DNA of 27,486 nucleotides from a virus. Taxonomy: Duplodnaviria > Heunggongvirae > Uroviricota > Caudoviricetes. Location: the IMG/VR virus record IMGVR_UViG_2909282993_000005; one strand, 5' to 3'. Each line of letters starts with the position of its first letter. Position 1 is the first letter of the stretch. This document shows positions 4,194-27,486 of the stretch, in pieces. The notes under the pieces are model-generated. The model was not told the origin of the DNA and made no database searches. It saw only the letters and a program-made list of their open reading frames with translations. The translations under genes and the position numbers were made by a program.

Positions 4194-4468
4194 CGTTTTT
4201 GATTATTCCCGCACACTCACGCAGAAGGAATTCCCCGTCGGGCTACGGTCATGGTTAATGCGGGAATACGGCGACGATACAGCGCAGCTAAAAGGGTAAT
4301 GGACAGAAAGAGCGGTTTATTTCATTCCACAGGATTCTGAGTGTCCCCAACTTCCTCCAATAGTCTGAGCGTACACCTATATAGTTTTAATTTTCATCAA
4401 TCCATTTAACTATCGTTTAATTGTTGTCACATAGGATTCCGCCGTTTTTAACAATGCAGGATAATAAG

Positions 4469-4762
4469 ATGAAAAAAATGTTGTTTTCTGCCGCTCTGGC
4501 AATGCTTATTACAGGATGTGCTCAACAGACGTTTACTGTTGGAAACAAACCGACAGCAGTAACACCAAAGGAAACCATCACCCATCACTTCTTCGTTTCG
4601 GGAATTGGACAGGAGAAAACTGTTGATGCAGCCAAAATTTGTGGCGGCGCAGAAAATGTTGTTAAAACAGAAACCCAGCAAACATTCGTAAATGGATTGC
4701 TCGGTTTTATTACTTTAGGCATTTATACTCCGCTGGAAGCGCGTGTGTATTGCTCACAATAA
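4469..4762 (+). CDS. bor: Bor lipoprotein (serum-resistance / outer-membrane lipoprotein of lambdoid phages)
   Basis: 97-aa product MKKMLFSAALAMLITGCAQQTFTV...GIYTPLEARVYCSQ with lipobox LITGC and an AGGA RBS. It is on the opposite strand to the lysis genes, as in lambda. Confidence 0.85.
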   Translation: MKKMLFSAALAMLITGCAQQTFTVGNKPTAVTPKETITHHFFVSGIGQEKTVDAAKICGGAENVVKTETQQTFVNGLLGFITLGIYTPLEARVYCSQ

Positions 4763-4852: not shown

Positions 4853-5254
4853 TCAGCCTCTCTCTGAGGGTGAAATAATCCCGTTCAGCGGTGTCTGCCA
4901 GTCGGGGGAGGCTGCATTATCCACGCCGGAGGCGGTGGTGGCTTCACGCACTGACTGACAGACTGCTTTGATGTGCAACCGACGACGACCAGCGGCAACA
5001 TCATCACGCAGAGCATCATTTTCAGCTTTCGCATTAGCTAACTCCTTCGTGTATTTTTCATCCAGTGCAGCAACATCACGCTGGCGCATCTGCATGTCAG
5101 TAATTGCCGCGTTCGCCAGCTTCAGTTCTCTGGCATTTTTGTCGCGCTGGGCTTTGTAGGTAATGGCGTTATCACGGTAATGATTAACAGCCCATGACAG
5201 GCAGACGATGATGCAGATAACCAGAGCGGAGATAATCGCGGTTACTCTGTTCAT
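4853..5254 (-). pseudogene. Rz (i-spanin), frameshifted: the Rz N-terminal 117 residues read through into the Rz1 frame and end with the Rz1 C-terminal peptide [16 protein letters not shown]
   Basis: Product [64 protein letters not shown]... is lambda-Rz-like. After ...VDNAASP the frame switches at a G5 run (plus 4904-4908), which lambda-type Rz/Rz1 needs to be one base longer. Confidence 0.65.
4885..5034 (-). pseudogene. Rz1 (o-spanin lipoprotein) embedded in Rz, with altered and truncated C-terminus from the same 1-nt indel
   Basis: Embedded ORF with AAGGAG RBS: [44 protein letters not shown] then TGRHR* in place of the expected [16 protein letters not shown]. Lipobox VVGC present. Confidence 0.55.
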
Positions 5255-5748
5255 TGCTGACCCCACAAACAGATTTCACGCTCAATCTCACGACGAGTCA
5301 TGAGACCTTTCCATTGCTTACCGCCAGCATATGTCCAGCGACGTAGCTGATCACATGCGCCTTTGATATCGCCCTGGTTTATTTTGCGAAGAAGCGTCGA
5401 TGTTCTGAAATTGCCAGCGCCCACGTTGTAAACGAACGAGTAAAGAGCGCCGCGCGTTGTTTCCGGTATATCAACTTTGATGTACGGGTTAATTTGTCTG
5501 GCGACCGTGGCAAGGTCTTTATTCAGGAGGGCTTTGCATTCTGCTTTGGTATACGTTTTACCGAGCATGATGTCTTTTCCTGTATGCCCGTGACATACAG
5601 TCCATACACCAACAATATCTTTGTATGGTATGTAGCTGACACCTTCCAGACCATCGTTACCACTTGGGCCAGTAATTAACACTGATGCTATAGCAATTGC
5701 TCCGCCACCAATAGCAGCAGCAACGGCTTTTCGTAATGATGGAGGCAT
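5251..5748 (-). CDS. SAR endolysin (phage 21-type lysozyme R, T4-lysozyme-like muramidase with N-terminal signal-arrest-release domain)
   Basis: 165-aa product [59 protein letters not shown]... with a Gly/Ala-rich SAR helix followed by the catalytic E-D-T region. Start/stop overlaps with S and Rz. Confidence 0.9.
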
Positions 5749-5963
5749 TATTCACCTCTCGCAGCCTTGCGCTTATCTTCTTTAATCTTGAAATAAAGGT
5801 TTGTCAGGTACGTCAGCAGGCCAAATACCAGGCTACCCAGCACACCTATTGCTGCCCACTGTGAGGGCGTGACTTTATCGAGCAGCTGTAAAAACCAGTA
5901 GCCAGCACTGCCTGCGGAGGTGCCGTAGGCAATGCCTGTTGAAATTTTGTCCATGGATTTCAT
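5748..5963 (-). CDS. Pinholin (phage 21 S21-type holin/antiholin with dual start MKSM)
   Basis: 71-aa product [71 protein letters not shown] with two TM segments. It lies immediately upstream of the SAR endolysin with an ATGA overlap. Confidence 0.85.
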
Positions 5964-6214
5964 AGCCTCACCTCCGCACGGAACGGATGGCATAGTTATT
6001 ATGTGTAGGCTTTCAGACACATCAATCAGAGCCTTAATTGATATATATGCTGGAGACGATGCAATATAAAAAGCTCGCCATAGCGAGCTAATAAAATGTA
6101 TTTCTCTGATATTATGTTTATTTGTATTAGCTCAGACTTGACATCACAGGTTTCGTATATAGAACATCATCAAATCTGTCAGTTTGCTATGAATGAGATA
6201 TAGTAATTGAAGAG

Positions 6215-6610
6215 CTAACCTCGCATGTCAAAGCCAGATTTCTGAAAATCTCTGTAGACTTCCGGATTGTTGAAGGCCGGAAATTTGGCTTTATGAGCTG
6301 CGGACTTTATCGCTTCGCAATAGGCTTTATCACCGTTACTGGTAGATATTTTTAACGCCGTGCCATCCTGAGAGAATTCCATATGCAACCTGCATTTTTT
6401 CCCTTTCCAGTTATGCGGCTCATCAAGTTTGGCATTAATTGCAGCTCTGATTCCCCGCGCTTGCGCCCCCCATTCATCCTGATCATCCCAGCGTCCTGAA
6501 CTGCAACTACCTGTAGCAGTAGTTTTGTGGCAATCTGAAGGGTGTAAAGGTGTGCATCCCGCAACAAAACCGACCCAAAAAGTCAACATAACGATTTTCT
6601 TTAATCCCAC
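6215..6610 (-). CDS. Lipoprotein with TolA domain-III-like C-terminus (moron)
   Basis: 131-aa ORF with signal peptide and lipobox (FVAGC). The C-terminus KKCRLHMEFSQDGTALKISTSNGDKAYCEAIKSAAHKAKFPAFNNPEVYRDFQ resembles the TolA C-terminal domain (GKTCTLRIKLAPDGMLLDIKPEGGDPALCQAALAAAKLAKIPKPPSQAVYEVF, from recall). Confidence 0.7.
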   Translation of the reverse strand: MGLKKIVMLTFWVGFVAGCTPLHPSDCHKTTATGSCSSGRWDDQDEWGAQARGIRAAINAKLDEPHNWKGKKCRLHMEFSQDGTALKISTSNGDKAYCEAIKSAAHKAKFPAFNNPEVYRDFQKSGFDMRG

Positions 6611-6760
6611 TTCTTGCTCCTCAATCCATTAAAATCTCAGCAATAGTAGTTGTTACGTCCGCCACTGGCTCAGAGCTGACTATCCGCTAAATTTAGCTCA
6701 GTGCCGTAGCTGTGTCAGAACAAACCTAAGCCGAAACCGTTTATTACAAAACAATAAATA

Positions 6761-7189
6761 TCAGGGTTTAAAATCCAGCACCCCATTTTGAAATACTTTA
6801 TATACTTCCGGCGAAGGGGGGGCAGGTATATCAGCATTCTTTATCGCATTCATCGCTTCACGACATAAATCGAGGTCTCCACTTTCTCTTTTAACCTCCA
6901 GTAGAAGGCCATTCGGGGCCATATGCATTCTCAGTGTACACTCTTTTCCTGAATACTTACTCGCATCCCCGAACTGTTTTTCGATGGCGCTCTTGATTTG
7001 ATGGGCATACAGACGGATATTCTCACTAACATCAGAAGTACGTTCAGATGAACTCACATACTGTGTCTCTATTGCTTTATCGGAGTAATATGATGTACGG
7101 TCATGATAATTTGTCGATACAGCATCAGTGCACCCGATAATAATCCCACTAATAATCAACGTAAGAATTGATGCGCTACGAAAACCCAT
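6761..7189 (-). CDS. Lipoprotein with TolA domain-III-like C-terminus (paralog of 6215..6610)
   Basis: 142-aa ORF with lipobox (IIIGC). The C-terminus GKECTLRMHMAPNGLLLEVKRESGDLDLCREAMNAIKNADIPAPPSPEVYKVFQNGVLDFKP closely parallels the TolA C-terminal domain and the neighbouring ORF. Confidence 0.7.
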   Translation of the reverse strand: MGFRSASILTLIISGIIIGCTDAVSTNYHDRTSYYSDKAIETQYVSSSERTSDVSENIRLYAHQIKSAIEKQFGDASKYSGKECTLRMHMAPNGLLLEVKRESGDLDLCREAMNAIKNADIPAPPSPEVYKVFQNGVLDFKP

Positions 7190-7306
7190 TTTTCCTCACA
7201 TATGTCATATAGTAAAGGATTATATATACCGTTGTTTTGGACGCTCAAACAGCGAATCAGATCAAATAAAACGCACATTTGTTAACATTTACACAAAGTC
7301 TGCGTG

Positions 7307-7327
7307 GGATATTCTGAAAGAATATCC
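7307..7327. promoter_or_regulatory. 21-bp perfect palindrome ggatattc-tgaaa-gaatatcc (candidate dimeric regulator binding site)
   Basis: Read directly: 8-bp inverted arms around a 5-nt spacer, about 120 bp upstream of the lipoprotein gene start at 7189. No T-run, so not a terminator. Confidence 0.3.
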
Positions 7328-7722
7328 ATAATGTGGAGAGAATCTATTGAAGTGCATGGTGCCGGGTGCCTCCCGGTGAATTCAGTACCAGCACCTGAAT
7401 CCGCGATTATCCCATATACCTACTCGCTGATTGCCCCTCCGCACAGGGGGATTCACCATGCCAGTTTCTTTTAACAAACTCCCCGCAAACCAGAGAACAG
7501 TCAACCGCCTGAATTGTGAAGTATTTAAAAATTTCTCCCGCTAACTGATACCCGGCTAACAGTCTGGCGTTTTCTTTTTCAGCAACGGGAAAGCAACAAC
7601 CACCACACCCGCCACCAGCACACCGTCAGCCAGCACTGACATTATCCGGCTGCTGCAATGCCATTCACAAAAACAGTAAGCAATCACTTTTTACCGTAAC
7701 AGGTGATAATCCAGATATGTAT

Positions 7723-8076
7723 CTACCCCAGATGAGTAATCCGAAGTTCATCCATACCACAGGTCCTGGCTATTCTGTTGTACTCCTGAACAAGAGCAAA
7801 TAATTCTGAATTAGCAACCATGAACTCATCGCAAACCCTCTGTATAGCATCACTATTCAGAAGAATAACGTCTCTTCCCGAAAGACGATCAGGAGTACAG
7901 AACAAAACTGTCAAACGGCTGAAGGCCTTTGCTCGTGCTGCATTGACTATATCAATACGCTGCCTAAGGATGAAACACCCCGACGCCTCATCAATATTCA
8001 CTCTACCCACACCATATGAATGATAAATATTTAATGCTGAAAAAACCATTAGACCGTATAACAAACACTCAATCAA
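7723..8076 (-). CDS. Hypothetical protein (moron between phage tRNAs and lysis cassette); start codon uncertain (TTG at 8076 or internal ATG at 8049)
   Basis: 117-aa ORF with no recognisable motif. Its position matches the accessory slot used by stx in Stx phages. Confidence 0.3.
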   Translation of the reverse strand: MIECLLYGLMVFSALNIYHSYGVGRVNIDEASGCFILRQRIDIVNAARAKAFSRLTVLFCTPDRLSGRDVILLNSDAIQRVCDEFMVANSELFALVQEYNRIARTCGMDELRITHLG

Positions 8077-8186
8077 TACTTAACAGAACTTTTATTTTTG
8101 ACAAACATATAATATTTTCAACAATATCCTGAGCCAGGTATATTCCAGTATAAGGCTCTGCCGGAAGGAATCTGGAAGAATGAATA

Positions 8187-8263
8187 TGGCGCGCTGTACT
8201 GGATTCGAACCAGTAACCGATTGCTTAGAAGGCAATTGCTCTGTCCGGCTGAGCTAACAACGC
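8187..8263 (-). tRNA. tRNA-Arg (anticodon UCU)
   Basis: 77-nt cloverleaf GCGTTGTTAGCTCAGCCGGACAGAGCAATTGCCTTCTAAGCAATCGGTTACTGGTTCGAATCCAGTACAGCGCGCCA. 7-bp acceptor stem, T-loop GGTTCGAATCC, anticodon loop CTTCTAA (U33, anticodon TCT, A37), encoded CCA. Confidence 0.85.
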
Positions 8264-8367
8264 TGAATACCGATAATGGACCGCTATCGGGGACCCGCCC
8301 CCCCCCGCACCAACAACCCTGTTATCGTGTCGTCTGCTCTTCCTGATAAGCTCATGGCGGTTTGTGA

Positions 8368-8443
8368 TGGTGGCCCTTGCTGGATTTGAACCAGCGACCT
8401 GGCGATTATGAGTCGCTCGCTCTCACCACTGAGCTAAAGGGCC
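8368..8443 (-). tRNA. tRNA with CAU anticodon, most similar to tRNA-Ile2 (lysidine type, ileX/ileZ-like); elongator Met not fully excluded
   Basis: 76-nt cloverleaf GGCCCTTTAGCTCAGTGGTGAGAGCGAGCGACTCATAATCGCCAGGTCGCTGGTTCAAATCCAGCAAGGGCCACCA. Anticodon loop CTCATAA; strong resemblance to E. coli ileX from recall. Confidence 0.8.
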
Positions 8444-8481
8444 GGGAGCAGAATAATAACGGTCCGTAATTAATTCCGCAA

Positions 8482-8506
8482 TAAAAAACCCGCTCGGCGG
8501 CGGGTT
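8482..8506 (-). terminator. tR'-like intrinsic terminator between the late promoter region and the tRNA genes
   Basis: Minus-strand RNA AACCCGC-CGCCGA-GCGGGUU followed by UUUUUUAU (7-bp GC-rich stem, then U-run). Confidence 0.45.
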
Positions 8507-8553
8507 GTAGAAACTCTTCTAACGTCAGGCATAAAAAGCCCATCGTTATGATG

Positions 8554-8581
8554 AATTTACCACAGATTTCGGAAAAATCAA
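8554..8581 (-). promoter_or_regulatory. Candidate late promoter pR' (sigma70-like -35 TTGATT, 16-bp spacer, -10 TAAATT) directly downstream of the Q-like gene
   Basis: Hexamers read on the minus strand. The position (Q stop to tR' to tRNAs to lysis genes) matches lambdoid late-operon layout. Short leader of about 60 nt before the terminator. Confidence 0.3.
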
Positions 8582-8586
8582 CCTTG

Positions 8587-9408
8587 TTACCTAGTTACCT
8601 TTTTTAACTGCCGCTCAGCCCATCCTTCTTCAATATCAAACCGGGTCACCAGCGCATCATAGAATTTCTTAACTGTTTTTTCCCATGACGCGCGTGTTAT
8701 CTGGTTTGTCACCTCGCATATAGCATTAAATGCCTCCGTTGATGGTAGTCTTTCATAGCCACGACCACCACAACGCTGGCAGTCTCTGATAACAGGCATA
8801 CCACGTTTTACCGACTCTTCACGGTGAATGGCGACACCACGCCCACGGCAATCCTTACAGGCGGTGGAAACCTCACCCTTTCCGCCACACTCCGGACAGG
8901 CAACTTTTACCACCTCCCTGACTTTTTTCCATTCTTCCCAGTAAGACGGATACACACCTTTCGTACACTTTGCCCATACCGGCGGCTTACCATCCGGATA
9001 CTGGACCTTGTTTGTAAAAACTACGCTTTCAATAAATTTTTCCCCATAGCAACAAGGGCACTGCTTTTTACTCGCTGCGCTGCGGGCATAATCCTCAAAA
9101 GCGTACGAAGCCATAATGCGCATCACTACCGGTTTTATTTCTGCCGGAAGTTTTCTCAACGCCGCCACACGATCGCACCGACTGAGTGCATAATCTGCCA
9201 GTAATTCTGTTGCCCGCGCCCTGTCATTCATACTGATGCCCATTTTCCCCAGGAACGCAGAAAACCCCATCTCAGCCCGATTCTGTGTCATGCCCTGCGC
9301 GGCCATCACATCAGTGATACTCAGCGCATCTTTTGACGTTGAGGCCGATGCATCGGTCAGGCAAGGGGATTTTGGGGAGTAGTATTTCGGTAAATCTTCC
9401 AGTTTCAT
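8587..9408 (-). CDS. Late-gene antiterminator Q-like protein with Cys-rich zinc-finger region (CPCC plus three CxxCxGxG motifs)
   Basis: 273-aa ORF immediately upstream of pR'/tR' and the tRNAs and downstream of rusA, the canonical Q position. Motifs CPECGGKG, CKDCRGRG, CQRCGGRG. Family assignment is by position plus Zn-binding motifs, not verified by search. Confidence 0.55.
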   Translation of the reverse strand: MKLEDLPKYYSPKSPCLTDASASTSKDALSITDVMAAQGMTQNRAEMGFSAFLGKMGISMNDRARATELLADYALSRCDRVAALRKLPAEIKPVVMRIMASYAFEDYARSAASKKQCPCCYGEKFIESVVFTNKVQYPDGKPPVWAKCTKGVYPSYWEEWKKVREVVKVACPECGGKGEVSTACKDCRGRGVAIHREESVKRGMPVIRDCQRCGGRGYERLPSTEAFNAICEVTNQITRASWEKTVKKFYDALVTRFDIEEGWAERQLKKVTR

Positions 9409-12164: not shown

Positions 12165-13364
12165 ATGCCATTTGTTATTTATGTGTTTACTATCAGTGCC
12201 TTTGCGCTCGGACTCGCGGAATTTGTCCCCATTGGGCTGACAGACGTTATGGCTCAGGGGTTGTGTGTGGGTGTGGAGCAGACCGGGGCAGCGGTTACAA
12301 CCTATGCACTGGGGGCAACGTTCGCGGCACCCGTACTGTCTGCGCTGACAGCAAGCTGGAGCCGGAAAAATGTAATGCTTACAACTGCCGTTGTGTTTAC
12401 TGCCGGTAGTCTGGCGGCCGCGTTTGCAGCCACATTACCTCAGCTCCTGTTAGCGCGGTTCATTGCTGGTCTGGGACACGGCCTGTTTCTGGCTGCGGCA
12501 TCCAGTACCGCAGCTCGTCTTGCTGGACCGGGTAAAGCAGGCAGAGCGGTGGCTGTGGTATTTGGTGGCTTTACTCTGGCGATGGCAATCGGCGTACCGC
12601 TGAGTACATGGTTGGGGGGGGTGGTCTCATGGCGTCCAGTTCTCGGCGCTATTGCCGCTTTTGGCGCGTTCGGATTCCTTGGACTGTTGTTCGGTATGAA
12701 AGATCCCGTACGCAGCGTGCCCGGTGAACATAGTGACTCAGCAATGCAGAATATCGGCATGCTGTTTAACCGTAAGTTGCTGGCCGGCGCGCTGGTTACG
12801 GTGCTGGCGTATGCAGGCTCGTTTACGGCTTACACCTTTATCGCACCTATTCTGACGCAGGTGACAGGGGTTACCGGAGCAAAGGTGAGTCTGTTTATGC
12901 TGGTTTACGGTATTACAGCTGCGGTAGGTAATATTCTTGGTGGGAAACTTACCGACAGCATGGGGGTTAATCGTGCCAATATACTCATCATTAGCGGCAT
13001 TGTTGTTGTCGTGCTTGGTATGTGGCTGCTGTCATCCTCACCGGTGAGCATGGGCATTCTGGTTGCGCTGCTGGGTATGGTGACATTTGCCGCAGTGCCG
13101 GCACTGCAGGCCCGTCTGATTGGTGTCGCTGAGCAACATGCTCCTCATGCGCATGGTGTTGCTGCCGGCCTGAATATTGCGGGCTTCAACTCAGGTATAG
13201 CGCTGGGATCAGTACTGGGCAGCATTACTATAAGCCACGCCGGTATCGTGTATACCGGTATCAGCGGTGCGATTGTTTCTCTGCTCGGCCTGCTGTTGCT
13301 GCTTGCACAAATCCGTCGCAGCCACAGTCGTAAATTTCAACAGGTTAAAATCGTAGGCCAGTAA
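12165..13364 (+). CDS. MFS transporter (12-TM, DHA1-like efflux/sugar-type family); GC-rich gene
   Basis: 399-aa highly hydrophobic ORF with MFS loop motifs; AGGAG RBS. Nucleotide composition is visibly more GC-rich than the flanking phage DNA. Confidence 0.8.
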   Translation: MPFVIYVFTISAFALGLAEFVPIGLTDVMAQGLCVGVEQTGAAVTTYALGATFAAPVLSALTASWSRKNVMLTTAVVFTAGSLAAAFAATLPQLLLARFIAGLGHGLFLAAASSTAARLAGPGKAGRAVAVVFGGFTLAMAIGVPLSTWLGGVVSWRPVLGAIAAFGAFGFLGLLFGMKDPVRSVPGEHSDSAMQNIGMLFNRKLLAGALVTVLAYAGSFTAYTFIAPILTQVTGVTGAKVSLFMLVYGITAAVGNILGGKLTDSMGVNRANILIISGIVVVVLGMWLLSSSPVSMGILVALLGMVTFAAVPALQARLIGVAEQHAPHAHGVAAGLNIAGFNSGIALGSVLGSITISHAGIVYTGISGAIVSLLGLLLLLAQIRRSHSRKFQQVKIVGQ

Positions 13365-13375
13365 AGGGAGGTTAT

Positions 13376-14068
13376 ATGCTTACCCGTGAAAATATGCTTA
13401 ATGGCACATTTGTCAGGGTGCATGAAGCGCTGCTCCCGGCGAATATGCTCTGGGACGCTGAAAAAATACGCGCATCAATGAACTCTACTCTGGAGGAGCG
13501 CCCGACGGGTGCTCCTTTCTGGATATTTGCCTACGGGTCATTGATGTGGAATCCCGTGCTGGCAATTGAAGAAATGCAACGGGCCCGTCTGAAAGGATGG
13601 CAGCGCAGTTTCTGCATTCGTTTGATATCCGGACGAGCGACTCCTGATGTCCCCGGCAGGATGTTATCGCTCGACGAAGGTGGAATTACCGAAGGTATTG
13701 CGTTCAGACTGCCGGAATCGACTCTTATTAATGAGCTGGAAATTGTCTGGACGCGCGAGATGATAACCGGTCTTTACCGTCCGGTCTGGGCAGACGTTTC
13801 GCTAGGAAACGGTGAGGAAATTCAGGCGCTGGCTTTCGTATCAGACAGACTGCATCCGCATTATGAACAGGACAATCTTACAGCGACCGTAGCGTTGAGC
13901 ATCGCATCTGCCCGTGGAGACATTGGCACGAATGCAGATTATGTATGGAAACTGCAGGCCACTCTGGGTGCGTTGGGAATACGGGATGATTACGTGAGTG
14001 AACTGGCCCTTGCTCTGCATGAGGCTCCCTGTAACGATAAACTTCATCAGCGAGGCGCTTCACTATGA
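13376..14068 (+). CDS. ChaC-family gamma-glutamylcyclotransferase-like protein
   Basis: 230-aa product with FAYGSLMWNP and GRMLSLDEGG...WTREMITG motifs matching the ChaC/GGCT fold signature (YGSL catalytic region). Confidence 0.8.
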   Translation: MLTRENMLNGTFVRVHEALLPANMLWDAEKIRASMNSTLEERPTGAPFWIFAYGSLMWNPVLAIEEMQRARLKGWQRSFCIRLISGRATPDVPGRMLSLDEGGITEGIAFRLPESTLINELEIVWTREMITGLYRPVWADVSLGNGEEIQALAFVSDRLHPHYEQDNLTATVALSIASARGDIGTNADYVWKLQATLGALGIRDDYVSELALALHEAPCNDKLHQRGASL

Positions 14069-14946
14069 GCCATCTGAGCCATCTGCGAACGTTTCTTGAG
14101 GCCTATCGCTCTGGCTCCTTTTCAAAGGCGGCAGAACTACTGGGCATCACTCAGCCCGCGGCGTCACAGCATATCCAGTCTCTTGAGACTCTGGTTGGTA
14201 AGCGTCTGTTTATCAGGCAGGCCAGAGGCGTGACGGCAACCGAAGCTGCGGATGAGCTTGCCCGCTCAGTTTCACCCTTCATTGATGGTCTGGAAGAAAA
14301 GCTGTCCTCTTTCCGGTCAGGCTCTGTACACGGGGGAACAATTAATCTGGCAGGACCGCCAGATTTTATTCATTCCCGGCTTGGGACAGTAATGGCTCCA
14401 CTAATGAAGGAGGGGTATCGCCTACGCTTTCATACCGGCAATAAGCAACGTATTTATTCCCTTTTGCATGACGGGAGCGCCGATCTCGCTGTTACCGCAT
14501 CTATGCCTGATGACCGTCTGTACGGCTATGCACATCTACTGACTGAACGCATGCTCCTTGTTCATGCTCCCGCCATGTCAGAGATCATCGGATCAGAACC
14601 TGGTGCTGAAACGCTTGCCTCATTACCGCTGATTGCTTATGACGAAGAGTTGCCACTGATTAGAGCGCTCTGGGCCTCCATGTTTCAGAGAGCCCCTGAG
14701 ATGCAGGCTACATTCACCATTCCGGATTTACGTATTATCCGCGACTTGGTCTGTGACGGCCACGGGTGGACAGTGCTGCCGGATTATCACTGTGACAATG
14801 ACCTGAAAAGTGGTCGCCTGATTTCAGTGACACCTGCAGACCTCGCTCCGACTAATCATCTTTATCTGGTCTGGAACAAAAGGACGGCTAATAACAGCCG
14901 AACCGCCTATGTTCGGGATTACATTCTTAAAACGTTTCCGCGTTGA
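14065..14946 (+). CDS. LysR-family transcriptional regulator
   Basis: 293-aa product with an N-terminal wHTH typical of LysR (LRTFLEAYRSGSFSKAAELLGITQPAASQHIQSLE) and a C-terminal substrate-binding domain. 4-bp overlap with the ChaC-like gene. Confidence 0.85.
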   Translation: MSHLSHLRTFLEAYRSGSFSKAAELLGITQPAASQHIQSLETLVGKRLFIRQARGVTATEAADELARSVSPFIDGLEEKLSSFRSGSVHGGTINLAGPPDFIHSRLGTVMAPLMKEGYRLRFHTGNKQRIYSLLHDGSADLAVTASMPDDRLYGYAHLLTERMLLVHAPAMSEIIGSEPGAETLASLPLIAYDEELPLIRALWASMFQRAPEMQATFTIPDLRIIRDLVCDGHGWTVLPDYHCDNDLKSGRLISVTPADLAPTNHLYLVWNKRTANNSRTAYVRDYILKTFPR

Positions 14947-14990
14947 TGTTTGAAACGGATGATTGGCGATGTGTATCATAAGTTACGTAT

Positions 14991-15020
14991 GTCCGCTTCT
15001 GGCACAAAGCAGACGCCCAC
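14991..15020. repeat. 30-bp imperfect direct repeat, copy A (gtccgcttctggcacaaagcagacgcccac)
   Basis: Matches copy B at 18664..18693 in 24/30 positions, with a 14-bp core GGCACAAAGCrGAC. Lies between the LysR stop and the convergent membrane-protein gene. Confidence 0.5.
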
Positions 15021-15076
15021 TCTCACGCGAATGCTTTGCCCTTGACTTGCCAACAACCGTATCGCTTGCTCCGCAA

Positions 15077-16369
15077 CTATGGTTTTTTATTAGAACCTTC
15101 GCCACTAAATAAATTATAATAAATTGATTTTATTAGATATCTGTCAGAATCTATATGGTCAGCACGAGTAGCATGCTCTAATGTTTCAAATGCTAGGGTT
15201 TGTGCGGCTTCAGCAAAAATTCCAGGCCAACCCTTACTCAGCATCGACAGTCCTTTAAGTACCCTTATCTGAATTTCCCTCATACTGGCACCATCGCGCG
15301 CAACAGGTGAGAAAAAGTCTTCAAGTAGATCGTTATTCTGAAGTGGTGCAACATGTACAGAAGGATATTTCACTTCTATTTCATCAGATTTATTCTGCGC
15401 GTAAGCGGAAAGTATACGTACACCTCTGCCAATGACATCAATGGCGGTTCCAGGATCGTTCACTGCGGGGGAAAGGGCTCGGCAGGCTATTTCGGCCATG
15501 ACGCTAAGACAAAATCGGGGGTCCTGAGCAAATGAACGTACATCCGAGACAATAATCGTCTCAAGTAAATCGGTGCTGATTGATGACTCCTGGCCCTGAC
15601 TCAGGTACAAAACTGGCGTGGACGGATGTATGAAACTGCCCGGCTGCGCCACGAGGTATACATGACGGGGATCATTGGTCAGCAGCTTGCTGAGTTTCAC
15701 CATATCAACATATTCAACATAGCCAATCTTTTTCGGATAAACTGCAACCGTTCCTTTCGGCTGTTCATTGTTCTCAAGCCATGGATATCCGCCGAGACAG
15801 GGATTTCTTGCTCTCGCAATAAATGTTTCGATGGCCGCCTGTTCTACTTTTGCCGTTGTCTCACCAACCCTCCCCAGAGAGGTCAAATGCTGTATCCAGC
15901 GAAGCAATGTGATGAGGATTAAGGCAATGACAACCAGTGTTACAATGAATAAAATGACTCTCCCCCTTTCTCCATAAGCTCCCATATTGAGGGCAATAAT
16001 CCCTACCAGACTGAAGAGAAAAGAACCGATGAAGGTGGCCAGTACATTTTGTGTGGTGACGTCTTCAACAACTAAACGAGTAGCTCTGGGAGTCACATTA
16101 GTAGTGGCTGAACCGTAGGCTGTGACCATGATGCTCAGCGAAAATGTGGTCACTGCCAGCATACTCGATGCCAGTATGTTCAGAATGTTATCGACTGCTT
16201 CCGCACCAACCTTCACGGAAACCGACTCAGGTATCATTGATTTAAAAAGAATTGATAAAAGGGCCGTTATTATTGCGACAATTGCGAATAACGTTGCCCT
16301 GAACCATAGTTTTTTAAATGTCTGCTTCAGCATCCATTTCCAGCGTGAAATCATTCTGCATTCCCTCAT
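15077..16369 (-). CDS. Membrane protein with N-terminal multi-TM region and C-terminal soluble domain (tentatively DUF2254-like); exact start uncertain (alternative Met codons at residues 6 and 13)
   Basis: 430-aa ORF with four predicted hydrophobic helices in the first ~160 residues and a long hydrophilic C-terminus. Family name is tentative recall. Confidence 0.55.
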   Translation of the reverse strand: MRECRMISRWKWMLKQTFKKLWFRATLFAIVAIITALLSILFKSMIPESVSVKVGAEAVDNILNILASSMLAVTTFSLSIMVTAYGSATTNVTPRATRLVVEDVTTQNVLATFIGSFLFSLVGIIALNMGAYGERGRVILFIVTLVVIALILITLLRWIQHLTSLGRVGETTAKVEQAAIETFIARARNPCLGGYPWLENNEQPKGTVAVYPKKIGYVEYVDMVKLSKLLTNDPRHVYLVAQPGSFIHPSTPVLYLSQGQESSISTDLLETIIVSDVRSFAQDPRFCLSVMAEIACRALSPAVNDPGTAIDVIGRGVRILSAYAQNKSDEIEVKYPSVHVAPLQNNDLLEDFFSPVARDGASMREIQIRVLKGLSMLSKGWPGIFAEAAQTLAFETLEHATRADHIDSDRYLIKSIYYNLFSGEGSNKKP

Positions 16370-16417
16370 ATTGCAGCCGGGATAAATAAATGCCGCCTCT
16401 GTGGCGGCATGTTGCTG

Positions 16418-18421
16418 TTAACGAACCAGATGCAGGAAGTGCAGGTGTTTTTCGTACTGGTCCAGTATGTCATTAATCAGCTGTTCCTGATTCCAGCCCA
16501 TTACATCATAATTTTGGCCGCCCTCTTTGAGATAGACTTCAGCGCGATAATATCGATGTTGTTCACTCTGCTGCTCATCATTATCCAGCGCAGCGAGCGC
16601 GAAGGTCGGTGAGTTATACCCGCGAAGCCTCACTTCATATATATAATTCAGCTCGTTGCCCAAATCGACTTCAAGGCGAATACGATCCTCGGCGGCGTCA
16701 CTGATGTGGCTTATCGTTCCCTGCTTGTTAAGTTCCTCCTGAACCAGCGTCATGGCGGGTTGGATAATGTCGTCCATAAAACGTTTCACAAGAGAGCGCT
16801 TCGGCAAATACGCGATATTGCGTAACCTTCTCTGCCAGGGAATTGGGTTACGTGCAGCCGTAGGAGCAATAGTCGCCATGCTAAGGCTTTCACGCTTGGT
16901 CAAATCCCGACGCAGGGCTTTTAACAGTCCGTATATGGATATTAATAAGATAACTGAGAAGGGCAATGCACTCGCTATCGTTACGGTTTGCAACGCACTC
17001 AGCCCCCCTGCGATCAGCAGGGCAATAGCAACAACGCCCATGAGCGATGCCCAGAAAATTCGCTGCCAGACGGGCGTGTTTGCCACCCCACCTGATGCCA
17101 GAGTATCCACAACCATTGCCCCCGAATCAGCAGACGTTACAAAGAAGACGATGACCATCGCCATTGCAATGAATGACAGCACGGAAGAGAACGGGAAATG
17201 CTCCAGGAAATTAAACAGGGCAAGCGCAACATCCTGCTGAACGGTATTGGCGAGGTCAGTGGCGCCCTGGTTCATGATGAGATAGATGGCGCTGTTTCCA
17301 AACACCGTCATCCACATGAGCGTAAAGCCGGCGGGAACAAACAACACGCCAGTCACGAACTCACGAATTGTCCTGCCGCGGGAAACGCGTGCAATGAACA
17401 TACCTACAAACGGCGACCATGAAAGCCACCATCCCCAGTATAATAATGTCCAGCCCCCCAGCCAGTTGCTCGACTTGGGTTCATACGCGTAAAGGTTGAA
17501 CGTTTTACTCACCAGTTCCGACAGATAACCACCCGTATTTTCCACAAATGACTTCAGCAGAAGCACAGTGGGACCCAGGCACAAGACCAGCGCCAGGAGC
17601 AACACCGCCAGGCCCAGATTAAGCTCAGACAGGATGCGTATTCCCTTGTCCAGGCCGGACACCACCGAAATCGTCGCTAACCCCGTGATGACCACGATCA
17701 AAATGACCTGTACCGTTTCATTGATGGGCACGCCGAAAAGATGGTTCAAACCGGCATTCACCTGCAATACACCGTAACCCAGTGATGTTGCAACGCCAAA
17801 GACAGTGCCTATCACGGCGAAGATATCAACCGCGTGGCCTATAGGCCCGTAAATGCGATCGCCGATAATGGGATAGAGCGCAGAACGCAGCGTTAAAGGC
17901 AGACCGTGACGGTAACTGAAAAAGGCCAGAATCAGCGCCACGATGGCATAAATTGCCCATGCGTGCAGACCCCAGTGGAAGAACGTCAGGCGCATGGCTT
18001 CCTTCGCTGCCGCAACGGTCTCTGGAGTGCCGACAGGTGGCGAAAGATAATGCATCACAGGTTCGGCAACGCCAAAGAACATCAGGCCGATCCCCATCCC
18101 TGCCGAAAAAAGCATCGCGAACCAGGAGTGGTAGCTGAAATCAGGCTGCGCATGGTCTGGGCCCAGCTTTATATCACCGTAACGTGAGAGTCCAAGGAAC
18201 GTGACGCTCAGTAAAATCAGGGCCACAGCAAGTATGTAGAACCAGCTGGCATTCGTGAAGATTTGTTGCTGAAGTAGTTTAAAATTTTTGTCGGCGACAT
18301 CCGGGAATACGGCGGCAAAGGCGACAAGAAGGAAAATTAGCAAAGCAGATGTAAAGAATACCGCTTTGTTAATCTGGCTTGTAGACTTCTTTGGGGTTGT
18401 ATCATTTTCACTCATAATCAT
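16418..18421 (-). CDS. BCCT-family transporter (BetT-like choline/betaine/carnitine transporter)
   Basis: 667-aa product with BCCT signature regions (WTLLYWGWWLSWSPFVGMFIARVSRGRTIREF) and the C-terminal DILDQYEKHLHFLHL tail typical of BetT. Confidence 0.85.
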   Translation of the reverse strand: MIMSENDTTPKKSTSQINKAVFFTSALLIFLLVAFAAVFPDVADKNFKLLQQQIFTNASWFYILAVALILLSVTFLGLSRYGDIKLGPDHAQPDFSYHSWFAMLFSAGMGIGLMFFGVAEPVMHYLSPPVGTPETVAAAKEAMRLTFFHWGLHAWAIYAIVALILAFFSYRHGLPLTLRSALYPIIGDRIYGPIGHAVDIFAVIGTVFGVATSLGYGVLQVNAGLNHLFGVPINETVQVILIVVITGLATISVVSGLDKGIRILSELNLGLAVLLLALVLCLGPTVLLLKSFVENTGGYLSELVSKTFNLYAYEPKSSNWLGGWTLLYWGWWLSWSPFVGMFIARVSRGRTIREFVTGVLFVPAGFTLMWMTVFGNSAIYLIMNQGATDLANTVQQDVALALFNFLEHFPFSSVLSFIAMAMVIVFFVTSADSGAMVVDTLASGGVANTPVWQRIFWASLMGVVAIALLIAGGLSALQTVTIASALPFSVILLISIYGLLKALRRDLTKRESLSMATIAPTAARNPIPWQRRLRNIAYLPKRSLVKRFMDDIIQPAMTLVQEELNKQGTISHISDAAEDRIRLEVDLGNELNYIYEVRLRGYNSPTFALAALDNDEQQSEQHRYYRAEVYLKEGGQNYDVMGWNQEQLINDILDQYEKHLHFLHLVR

Positions 18422-26190: not shown

Positions 26191-27486
26191 ATGAGAGAAG
26201 TTGAAATGAAATATCCGACAGGCGTGGAAAACCATGGAGGGAAATTACGTATCTGGTTTGTTTATAAAGGCGTAAGAGTCAGGGAAAATCTGGGGGTTCC
26301 TGACACAGCAAAAAACAGGCGCGTTGCAGGTGAACTACGCGCCTCTGTTTGTTACGCAATAAAAACTGGTGTTTTCGACTATGCAAAACAGTTTCCCTCC
26401 TCACGCAATCTGGAAAAATTTGGTGAGGCCCGACAAGATTTAACCATAAAAGAACTGGCTGAAAAATTTCTGGCACTGAAAGAAACTGAAGTCGCAAAAA
26501 CATCACTCAACACATACCGTGCCGTCATCAAAAATATCCTGAGCATAATCGGTGAAAAAAATCTTGCCTCATCGATTAATAAAGAAAAATTACTGGAGGT
26601 TCGTAAAGAGCTACTGACTGGATACCAGATCCCCAAAAGTAACTATATTGTTACACAACCAGGGAGATCGGCTGTAACTGTAAATAATTACATGACAAAT
26701 CTTAACGCCGTGTTCCAGTTTGGTGTTGATAACGGCTACCTGGCAGATAACCCGTTTAAGGGGATCTCGCCATTAAAGGAATCAAGAACCATTCCGGATC
26801 CTCTTTCGCGGGAGGAATTCATCCGTCTTATCGATGCGTGCAGAAATCAGCAAGCCAAAAATTTATGGTGTGTTTCTGTTTATACTGGCGTTCGCCCTGG
26901 TGAGCTGTGTGCACTTGGATGGGAGGACATAGATCTGAAAAATGGAACAATGATGATCAGGAGAAATTTAGCAAAAGACCGTTTCACGGTACCAAAAACA
27001 CAGGCGGGAACCAATCGGGTCATTCATCTTATTAAGCCAGCAATCGACGCTCTCCGGAGTCAGATGACATTAACGAGACTGAGCAAAGAGCATATCATTG
27101 ATGTTCACCTCAGAGAGTATGGCAGAACAGAAAAACATAAATGCACCTTTGTTTTTCAACCTGAAGTGTCAGCGAGAGTAAAAAATTATGGTGACCATTT
27201 TACCGTTGACTCAATAAGGCAGATGTGGGACGCAGCGATAAAACGTGCCGGACTCCGCCATCGAAAATCATATCAGTCGAGACATACTTATGCCTGCTGG
27301 TCGCTGACTGCTGGTGCTAACCCGGCATTTATAGCAAACCAGATGGGCCATGCAGATGCGCAAATGGTATTTCAGGTATACGGAAAATGGATGTCTGAAA
27401 ACAATAATGCACAGGTAGCTTTGTTAAATACACAGTTAAGCGAGTTTGCCCCAACCATGCCCCATAACGAAGCAATGAAAAATTAA
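26191..27486 (+). CDS. Tyrosine recombinase / phage integrase (likely true start at ATG 26206, which has a GAGAAG RBS)
   Basis: 431-aa ORF with the C-terminal catalytic region of the integrase family (RHTYACW, GHADAQMVFQVYGKW with catalytic Tyr). The window ends at its stop codon, so the att site is outside the window. Confidence 0.9.
   Translation: MREVEMKYPTGVENHGGKLRIWFVYKGVRVRENLGVPDTAKNRRVAGELRASVCYAIKTGVFDYAKQFPSSRNLEKFGEARQDLTIKELAEKFLALKETEVAKTSLNTYRAVIKNILSIIGEKNLASSINKEKLLEVRKELLTGYQIPKSNYIVTQPGRSAVTVNNYMTNLNAVFQFGVDNGYLADNPFKGISPLKESRTIPDPLSREEFIRLIDACRNQQAKNLWCVSVYTGVRPGELCALGWEDIDLKNGTMMIRRNLAKDRFTVPKTQAGTNRVIHLIKPAIDALRSQMTLTRLSKEHIIDVHLREYGRTEKHKCTFVFQPEVSARVKNYGDHFTVDSIRQMWDAAIKRAGLRHRKSYQSRHTYACWSLTAGANPAFIANQMGHADAQMVFQVYGKWMSENNNAQVALLNTQLSEFAPTMPHNEAMKN

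Follow-up and report, generated by a model that had tools for sequence, protein, structure and literature searches.

Tol-dependent colicins and filamentous phages must engage TolA in order to enter the cell. Colicin production is common in gut E. coli and therefore colicins probably shape the competition between strains there. The present study concerns a window (the whole stretch of DNA analysed, 27,486 nucleotides) from the IMG/VR virus record IMGVR_UViG_2909282993_000005 (Caudoviricetes). Two neighbouring open reading frames (ORFs) of this prophage, ORF-A and ORF-B, lie on the minus strand of the window in the interval 6215-7189, and each encodes a small predicted lipoprotein that ends in domain III of TolA (TolAIII). 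It is proposed that the two proteins act as decoys which intercept Tol-dependent colicins and the g3p of filamentous phages, and the probability of this reading is put at roughly 0.45.

The closest known counterpart of both proteins is TolAIII itself (E. coli residues ~333-421; PDB 1TOL, 1S62, 3QDP/3QDR, 2X9A), with which they have the fold, the two disulfide cysteines and the sequence of secondary-structure elements in common. ORF-A has also retained beta3 of TolA, the strand to which TolB, g3p and colicin N bind, and the colicin A site for the most part. Unlike TolA, the two proteins are without domains I and II and without a link to TolQR or to the proton-motive force, they carry a predicted lipoprotein anchor, and they are borne by a prophage outside the tol-pal operon. 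The closest functional precedent is an engineered one, in which a likewise detached TolAIII was exported alone across the inner membrane to the periplasm and caused periplasmic proteins to leak from E. coli (Wan & Baneyx 1998, applied in PMC6195910). That construct was artificial, soluble and over-produced, whereas ORF-A and ORF-B are natural, predicted to be lipid-anchored, diverged from host TolA, mobile and under selection. Periplasmic TolAIII, in the work of Levengood-Freyermuth et al. from 1993, reportedly gives tolerance to colicins A, E1, E2 and E3, and not to the TonB-dependent colicin D.

Other small phage lipoproteins are known to block entry routes. Llp of T5 and Cor of phi80, N15 and HK022, both targeting FhuA, are likewise small phage outer-membrane lipoproteins that close the route of competing phages and colicins; they have no kinship in sequence or fold to ORF-A and ORF-B, and they plug a receptor, whereas a decoy of a periplasmic hub is proposed here. 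The TolA node is also the target of filamentous-phage g3p made in the host, which is said to result in colicin tolerance and superinfection exclusion (work of Boeke, Model and Zinder in 1982). The logic is opposite, as g3p occupies the TolA of the host and ORF-A and ORF-B would occupy the TolA-binding site of the invader. Bor/Iss of lambda is also a lipoprotein moron beside a lambdoid lysis cassette, but it is a member of PF06291, a family with no relation to TolAIII, and has been linked to serum resistance.

TolA domain III in two predicted lipoproteins

Each of the two proteins holds a complete TolA domain III, and the likeness is far beyond chance. The Pfam family TolA_C (PF06519, cut-off 25) was matched by ORF-A with 82 bits (E 3.6e-23) and by ORF-B with 54.6 bits (E 1.3e-14), and phmmer matched PDB chains of TolAIII with E values of 2e-27 and 5e-9, respectively. 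Residues 335-421 of E. coli TolA align with residues 56-142 of ORF-A without a gap through the last residue, with 51 of 87 positions identical (58.6%); against ORF-B, 27 of the 87 are identical (31%). The first-pass annotation, made from the letters of the window, had described two lipoprotein genes with a TolA domain III-like end in this interval and had named a profile search and a structure comparison as the checks. Both genes and the lipoboxes it quoted are present, and Pfam, phmmer and the gapless alignment of ORF-A agree on the domain.

The predicted structures lead to the same result. In the AlphaFold2 models the predicted local distance difference test score of ORF-A exceeds 90 over residues 51-142 and stays under 50 over residues 1-50, while that of ORF-B is 76 over residues 41-50 and lies at 85-96 in the rest of the chain; the N-terminal 40-50 residues are disordered in both. 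The top Foldseek match in the PDB was an E. coli TolAIII in each case, 2x9a_B for ORF-A (template modelling score 0.96, root-mean-square deviation 0.6 A) and 3qdp for ORF-B (0.92 and 1.1 A), and TonB C-terminal domains were only distant matches of both models. The order of the TolAIII fold (a long helix, a short helix, two strands, two helices and a C-terminal strand) is present in both. The cysteine pair that matches Cys363/Cys388 of E. coli TolA is kept in ORF-A, in ORF-B and in 97-98% of the family members. A lack of profile and structural similarity to TolAIII, which the first-pass annotation had named as a refuting outcome, was thus looked for and not found, and those parts of its interpretation that are open to computation held up.

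Neither protein is a TolA. Matches to the full-length TolA models NF007065 and TIGR02794 span only the last 80-97 positions of the models. Transmembrane domain I, which couples TolA to TolQ and TolR, is absent from ORF-A and ORF-B, whose N-termini are predicted lipoprotein signal peptides; the long helical domain II is absent as well, the proteins having 142 and 131 amino acids (aa) against ~350-420 aa for TolA. The operon context ybgC-tolQRA-tolB-pal-cpoB was not found around the two genes, the neighbours of which are the phage Q/tRNA region and a holin. With NF007065 (cut-off 213) both proteins score below the cut-off, at 106 and 54 bits. With TIGR02794 (cut-off 59.45) ORF-B stays below at 47.2, and ORF-A exceeds the cut-off at 75.1 on its C-terminal domain alone, which is why RefSeq calls it tolA. 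The name "tolA" or "cell envelope integrity protein TolA" for 142-aa proteins of the ORF-A type is a misleading over-annotation. It should be noted that the TolA homology of these genes is thus already in public (RefSeq) annotation, from which an account of function is absent; in PHROGs the genes fall in phrog_5772, described only as "unknown function". They are merely listed, without a functional account, in PMC6854850 and PMC10269471. The architecture of lipoprotein signal, linker and TolAIII, its breadth over mobile elements and its pairing with a TonB C-terminal domain (see below) are new here, no published description having been found in the literature search.

Both ORFs begin with a positively charged n-region followed by a hydrophobic core and a canonical lipobox ([LVI][ASTVI][GAS]C), and the residue at +2 is Thr in both. 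A lipobox is present in most of 166 close homologues, in which +2 is nearly always A, T or S and never Asp. In E. coli, Asp at +2 is the signal for retention in the inner membrane under the Lol sorting rule. Because the lipobox is conserved and Asp never occurs at +2, sorting to the outer membrane is expected, and both proteins are predicted from these signals to be lipidated and to reside there. The earlier description of the products as tethered in the periplasm thus stands as far as the lipoprotein signals go, and it is to be narrowed to a predicted anchor at the outer membrane. RefSeq places the start of ORF-B at Met8. Plasmid homologues have an ATG at the exact position of GTG 6610, behind a conserved GAGGAG ribosome-binding site, and the charged n-region exists only in the longer form; the longer start is therefore better supported.

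ORF-A and ORF-B are 29% identical to each other (E 2e-18), and the earlier term "paralogous" is a loose one for them. The clades to which they belong have different histories and so the pair is not the product of a recent tandem duplication. In the ORF-B clade a Cys-x8-Cys loop and the SSGRWDDQDEWG motif sit between the lipid anchor and TolAIII, without a counterpart in TolA or in ORF-A. The AlphaFold2 confidence of this stretch is low.

A profile search of 1.84 billion cluster representatives (one per cluster at 50% identity) gave 577 relatives. Among the best 150 of these, 81 are 100-170 aa long, and 61 of the 81 carry a lipobox. Named members come from Erwinia, Klebsiella, Enterobacter, Serratia, Rahnella and Dryocola. 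ORF-A and ORF-B are part of a large Enterobacterales family of short TolAIII lipoproteins found on prophages, on plasmids and as lone chromosomal genes.

It could be argued that the two genes are inert, being functionless remnants of a bacterial tolA that a phage once acquired. The RefSeq label "tolA", the presence of the genes in only one isolated GenBank phage and the frameshifts or truncations of some database copies would fit such an origin. However, both ORFs are intact and have purpose-built lipoprotein signal peptides that are foreign to TolA. The ratio of nonsynonymous to synonymous divergence (dN/dS) of ORF-B is 0.06-0.11 at dS 0.4-1.1 against plasmid and chromosomal homologues, and that of ORF-A is 0.30-0.33 against its 82%-identical variant, with the linker diverging faster than the domain. 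Such low values, obtained despite high synonymous divergence, indicate working genes and not debris. Identity of at least 99% is maintained by ORF-A in 780 complete E. coli genomes and by ORF-B in 783 records, and the lipobox architecture is widely kept in the family. Selection and conservation have already effectively refuted the idea of leftovers, for which hardly any probability remains.

Ligand sites and a possible decoy function

The beta3 strand of TolAIII (residues 415-420) docks the N-terminus of TolB, the N1 domain of g3p and colicin N by strand augmentation, with backbone contacts given by D418 and K420 (PMC7391070; PMC4339652). The first-pass annotation had called TolAIII a hub bound by Pal and TolB; the part on TolB agrees with this docking, and binding of TolA to Pal is disputed in the literature (PMC7391070). 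Colicin A uses beta2 of TolA (375-LLDIKP-380) together with cation-pi contacts to K368, K379 and K396 (PMC3365938). In ORF-A beta3 reads GVLDFKP where TolA has APLDFKP, so that LDFKP is identical, and beta2 reads LLEVKR against LLDIKP, with two of the three cation-pi lysines kept. Judged by these residues, ORF-A looks like a close mimic of the host TolA hub and ORF-B looks like a diverged one.

If the proteins are decoys, each would present a free TolAIII at the end of a flexible linker (~25-30 residues) that is attached to the inner face of the outer membrane, and the tethered domains would not be connected to the TolQR motor. In the lysogen both genes would be transcribed from the cassette's own promoter, and a terminator would halt RNA polymerase before the holin. 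In lytic growth the Q-modified polymerase would probably read through this terminator. The position of this terminator just before the holin would be understandable if, in the lysogen, polymerase without such modification came in from the cassette promoter. Under the porins, the decoys would catch incoming group A colicins and related bacteriocins by their TolA-binding epitopes, and filamentous phages by the N1 domain of g3p; possibly they would also catch the exposed N-terminus of colicin-bound TolB. The predicted sorting to the outer membrane would place them where the colicin epitopes emerge. A decoy does not deliver the proton-motive force, and therefore import would stall and the lysogen would be tolerant. 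ORF-A and ORF-B differ at the known ligand sites and so the pair could intercept a wider range of invaders. Pili made by conjugative plasmids serve filamentous phages, and IF1 uses I pili. The g3p of IF1 binds TolAIII (PDB 2x9a). The affinity for TolAIII is ~1-3 uM in the case of colicin N (PMC4339652) and ~40-200 uM in the case of TolB (PMC7391070); since colicin N binds the tighter of the two, low levels of a decoy could trap invaders without disabling Tol-Pal. The wide distribution of the family, on prophages, plasmids and chromosomes, fits a gene that benefits the cell carrying it and makes the decoy reading more plausible.

A number of observations weigh against this reading. The free periplasmic domain makes cells leaky, which could mean a cost or a different purpose. 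ORF-B has SGFDMRG as beta3, ALKIST as beta2 and none of the three cation-pi lysines, and the colicin A contacts are lost. No defence family of PADLOC-DB 2.0 was matched at E <= 0.1, and a full-text literature search found no functional study of these lipoproteins. Among 50,697 GenBank phage records searched by tblastn, only LR597641.1 (mEp460_ev081) has the genes. The promoter-like site is not conserved upstream of the divergent, 82%-identical variant of ORF-A. The cassette is positioned in a Q-dependent late operon. It is present in 151 IMG/VR contigs, gene order being counted on 80 retrieved loci, and the same P21-type holin follows 255 nucleotides (nt) after ORF-B in 76 of the 77 IMG/VR loci whose sequence extends far enough downstream, which also fits a role in lysis.

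A role of that kind could be modulation of Tol-Pal, the main rival of the decoy reading, which we regard as unlikely; the first-pass annotation had offered both as possibilities. Tethered TolAIII would compete with the real TolA for the N-terminus of TolB, so that TolB-Pal would be uncoupled from the motor and the outer membrane would become looser. The gain would be an outer membrane that breaks down more easily towards the end of the lytic cycle, or else a higher output of vesicles and of periplasmic contents (including bacteriocin, in the case of Col plasmids). In ORF-A the LDFKP strand is the same as the one by which E. coli TolA binds TolB. Both genes are part of the late operon antiterminated by Q, directly ahead of holin, lysozyme and Rz and tightly linked to the holin, and free periplasmic TolAIII lets periplasmic proteins leak out (PMC6195910). 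Yet a promoter-like site before the cassette and a terminator after it correspond to the arrangement of genes that are active in the lysogen, and the ORF-B homologues on conjugative plasmids or alone on chromosomes have no lysis genes nearby while being under strong purifying selection. The affinity of TolB for TolAIII is weak, and the outer membrane is already handled by the spanins of the cassette (Rz/Rz1). Defects in tol and pal are costly. A benefit against bile salts from a weakened Tol-Pal was considered and rejected, because loss of tolA or pal has the opposite effect and makes the cells more sensitive (PMC12505904).

If the decoy reading is true, a generic gene for tolerance to bacteriocins and phages would exist in ~16-23% of complete E. 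coli genomes and also on hundreds of clinically relevant plasmids, including pO157 and Klebsiella IncF and Col plasmids. Such decoys would add a new category to the defences that mobile elements carry, with a bearing on therapeutics based on bacteriocins or phages and on the success of lysogens and plasmid carriers in the gut. The natural, diverged TolAIII variants could also be used to map how the hub is recognised by TolB, colicins and g3p. The decoy reading would overturn nothing and would be of interest to specialists of Tol-Pal and colicins.

Relatives on plasmids and chromosomes

The ORF-B clade was found in 1268 E. coli genomes, and 525 of its places there are on plasmids. ORF-B was considered as a phage-specific gene, and this was rejected as the clade is mainly borne by plasmids and chromosomes. 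The earlier term "phage-encoded" is therefore correct for both genes in this prophage and does not describe the clade of ORF-B. Homologues with 88% identity lie directly downstream of the nikB relaxase gene on ~600 I-complex plasmids of E. coli and Shigella. On an IncK2/Z plasmid the homologue is at 8965-9396 of the retrieved locus, directly after nikB, and on pO157 of E. coli O157:H7 EC4115 (locus positions 7001-7432) it lies by a truncated nikB, beside toxB. Citrobacter, Enterobacter and a Serratia-labelled genome have lone chromosomal homologues, the neighbourhoods of which are unrelated. On the Serratia-labelled chromosome (locus positions 6957-8736) the homologue adjoins a GmrSD_N and HEPN pair, after nrdDG; this neighbourhood is of the defence-island type. 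One "plasmid" match, from Providencia, turned out to be a true tol-pal operon and was set aside.

More distant TolAIII lipoproteins are carried by Klebsiella IncFIB/FII plasmids and by 10-kb ColRNAI plasmids with a cloacin-like bacteriocin. On the IncFIB/IncFII plasmid NZ_CP079637.1 (locus positions 5229-6258) a 144-aa TolAIII lipoprotein (LLITAC|S) comes directly after a gene for a periplasmic thioredoxin-fold protein with a CVYC motif, which could be a dedicated partner that forms its disulfide. On the 10-kb ColRNAI plasmid NZ_CP092719.1 of K. pneumoniae (locus positions 5908-6641) the gene of a 123-aa TolAIII lipoprotein (LLLTAC|K) overlaps by 4 nt the gene of a 121-aa TonB_C protein with a Sec signal (PF03544, 42.5 bits). 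This pair adjoins, divergently, an operon of a cloacin-like bacteriocin with its immunity and lysis genes, and the two proteins may be matched decoys for both import systems. In a published comparison the two genes are noted as present and nothing more (PMC10269471).

It is also conceivable that the TolAIII fold has been re-used for some other ligand in the periplasm or at the surface, for instance in an envelope or serum-resistance lipoprotein like Bor/Iss, a conjugation factor or a blocker of tailed-phage entry. ORF-B gives some ground for this, being 31% identical to TolAIII with changed ligand sites and a conserved Cys-x8-Cys loop and SSGRWDDQDEWG of its own, as does the fixed position of its homologues right after the relaxase gene on I-complex plasmids. 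The Bor/Iss gene of the same prophage, which is a second lipoprotein moron, could be quoted in addition. On the other hand ORF-A, with 58.6% identity and its binding strands kept, resembles E. coli TolAIII so closely that a wholly new ligand is not the simplest reading. Next to a bacteriocin operon a TolAIII lipoprotein is paired with a secreted TonB C-terminal domain, which points specifically at the two import hubs, and there is no positive evidence for any alternative ligand. We consider such a re-use distinctly improbable.

The decoy reading can be extended, more tentatively than for ORF-A and ORF-B themselves, to a wider principle. Mobile elements of Enterobacterales, among them lambdoid prophages, I-complex and IncF conjugative plasmids, Col-type bacteriocin plasmids and small chromosomal islets, might secrete the tips of TolA (TolAIII, as an outer-membrane lipoprotein) and of TonB (its C-terminal domain, as a soluble periplasmic protein) without the motor, as decoys. 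This could give a broad tolerance to bacteriocins and filamentous phages without immunity proteins, and the tandem of ORF-A and ORF-B might then be a version with two specificities.

Layout and spread of the cassette

A promoter-like site, two genes, a terminator and a low content of guanine plus cytosine (0.37-0.47 over 5950-7450 against ~0.49-0.53 in the lysis and Q/nin genes) are the classic layout of a moron, with promoter and terminator being predicted (Table 1). The promoter-like site is the best in the region, ~30 nt upstream of the ORF-A start, and is a match to the consensus only. A ribosome-binding site GAGGA lies 4 nt ahead of the ATG of ORF-A. The terminator between ORF-B and the holin has a predicted RNA fold of -11.2 kcal/mol (z = -3.5 against shuffles). 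A promoter that travels with ORF-A was not supported, the region upstream of the 82%-identical variant being unrelated, and neither was a terminator that travels with ORF-B, as it is absent from plasmid and chromosomal copies.

Table 1. Coordinates of ORF-A, ORF-B and neighbouring features in the window; signal peptides, lipoboxes, promoter and terminators are predictions
Feature	Position	Strand	Remarks
ORF-A	7189..6761	minus	142 aa; N-terminus MGFRSASILTLIISGIIIGC, then TD after the lipobox Cys
ORF-A signal peptide (MGFR start) and lipobox IIGC	Cys20 at nt 7132..7130	minus	
ORF-A linker	aa 21-50		Ser/Thr/Tyr-rich, disordered
ORF-A TolAIII domain	aa 51-142, nt 7039..6764	minus	
ORF-A/ORF-B spacer	6760..6611		150 nt
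ORF-B	6610..6215	minus	131 aa, GTG start; N-terminus MGLKKIVMLTFWVGFVAGC, then TP after the lipobox Cys
ORF-B signal peptide (MGLKK start) and lipobox VAGC	Cys19 at nt 6556..6554	minus	
ORF-B mini-loop Cys27-x8-Cys36 (CHKTTATGSC) and SSGRWDDQDEWG motif	nt 6503-6532 (loop)	minus	conserved in clade
ORF-B TolAIII domain	aa 46-131, nt 6475..6218	minus	
Q antiterminator (PF03589)	9408..8587	minus	
Terminator directly after Q	8506..8487	minus	terminator scan
Two tRNAs	8443..8368 and 8263..8187	minus	ARAGORN
DUF3927	7687..7556	minus	
STnc100-family small RNA (Rfam RF02076)	7490..7300	minus	full-length match, 114 bits against gathering 47
Sigma-70 promoter-like site TTGAGC-18-TATAAT	7248..7219	minus	consensus scan, 10/12 matches
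Intrinsic terminator AGCUCGC-UAUG-GCGAGCU then UUUUUAUAUU	6089..6072	minus	between ORF-B and holin
P21-type holin	6020..5748	minus	
Lysozyme	5748..5251	minus	
Rz/Rz1	5266..4853 / 5034..4885	minus	
Bor/Iss lipoprotein (PF06291, 106 bits)	4421..4762	plus	far side of lysis cassette, opposite strand

The placement of the pair between the phage tRNAs and the holin, noticed at the outset, is borne out by the gene order, which is Q, tRNAs, DUF3927, ORF-A, ORF-B and P21-type holin. The first-pass annotation had also compared the site to the slot of the Shiga toxin (Stx) genes. A variant of ORF-A stands alone in a late region of the Stx-phage type (Q, tRNAs, IS600, the gene and a nanS-p esterase), and the segment 7354-7500 recurs with 90-100% identity in many Stx phages; in Shigella phage 75/02 Stx its place is just after stx1B. 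The comparison was thus apt, as Stx phages have their accessory region in this slot.

ORF-A was found in 887 of 5426 complete E. coli genomes, where 949 of its 951 places are chromosomal, and the whole 1.5-kb cassette is present in 771 genomes. ORF-B follows ORF-A in all 80 IMG/VR loci retrieved, with the spacing fixed at 154 nt in 76 of them, and the Q of the window is common to only 34 of the 80. The idea of a common gene of isolated phages was rejected on the single GenBank phage record; the genes are common instead in prophage regions (IMG/VR). The "ev081" in the name of that record suggests a laboratory-evolved recombinant, and mEp460_ev081 may have got its late region from a resident prophage.

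The STnc100 match lies directly upstream of the ORF-A promoter-like site, and STnc100 has been related to the prophage small RNA PasD in a 2026 preprint (10.64898/2026.05.13.724894). The tRNA at 8368-8443 is called tRNA-Met (CAT) by ARAGORN, and its counterpart in strain AR_452 is called tRNA-Ile by RefSeq; it is presumably a lysidine-modified Ile tRNA, as in the tRNA clusters of Stx phages. Further inside the prophage, the block 12165-18421 holds non-phage-looking genes, namely a major facilitator superfamily (MFS) transporter, a gamma-glutamylcyclotransferase, a LysR regulator, DUF2254 and a BCCT betaine/choline transporter, and is located between the hokD/nin-Q region and the early region with the integrase (26191-27486).

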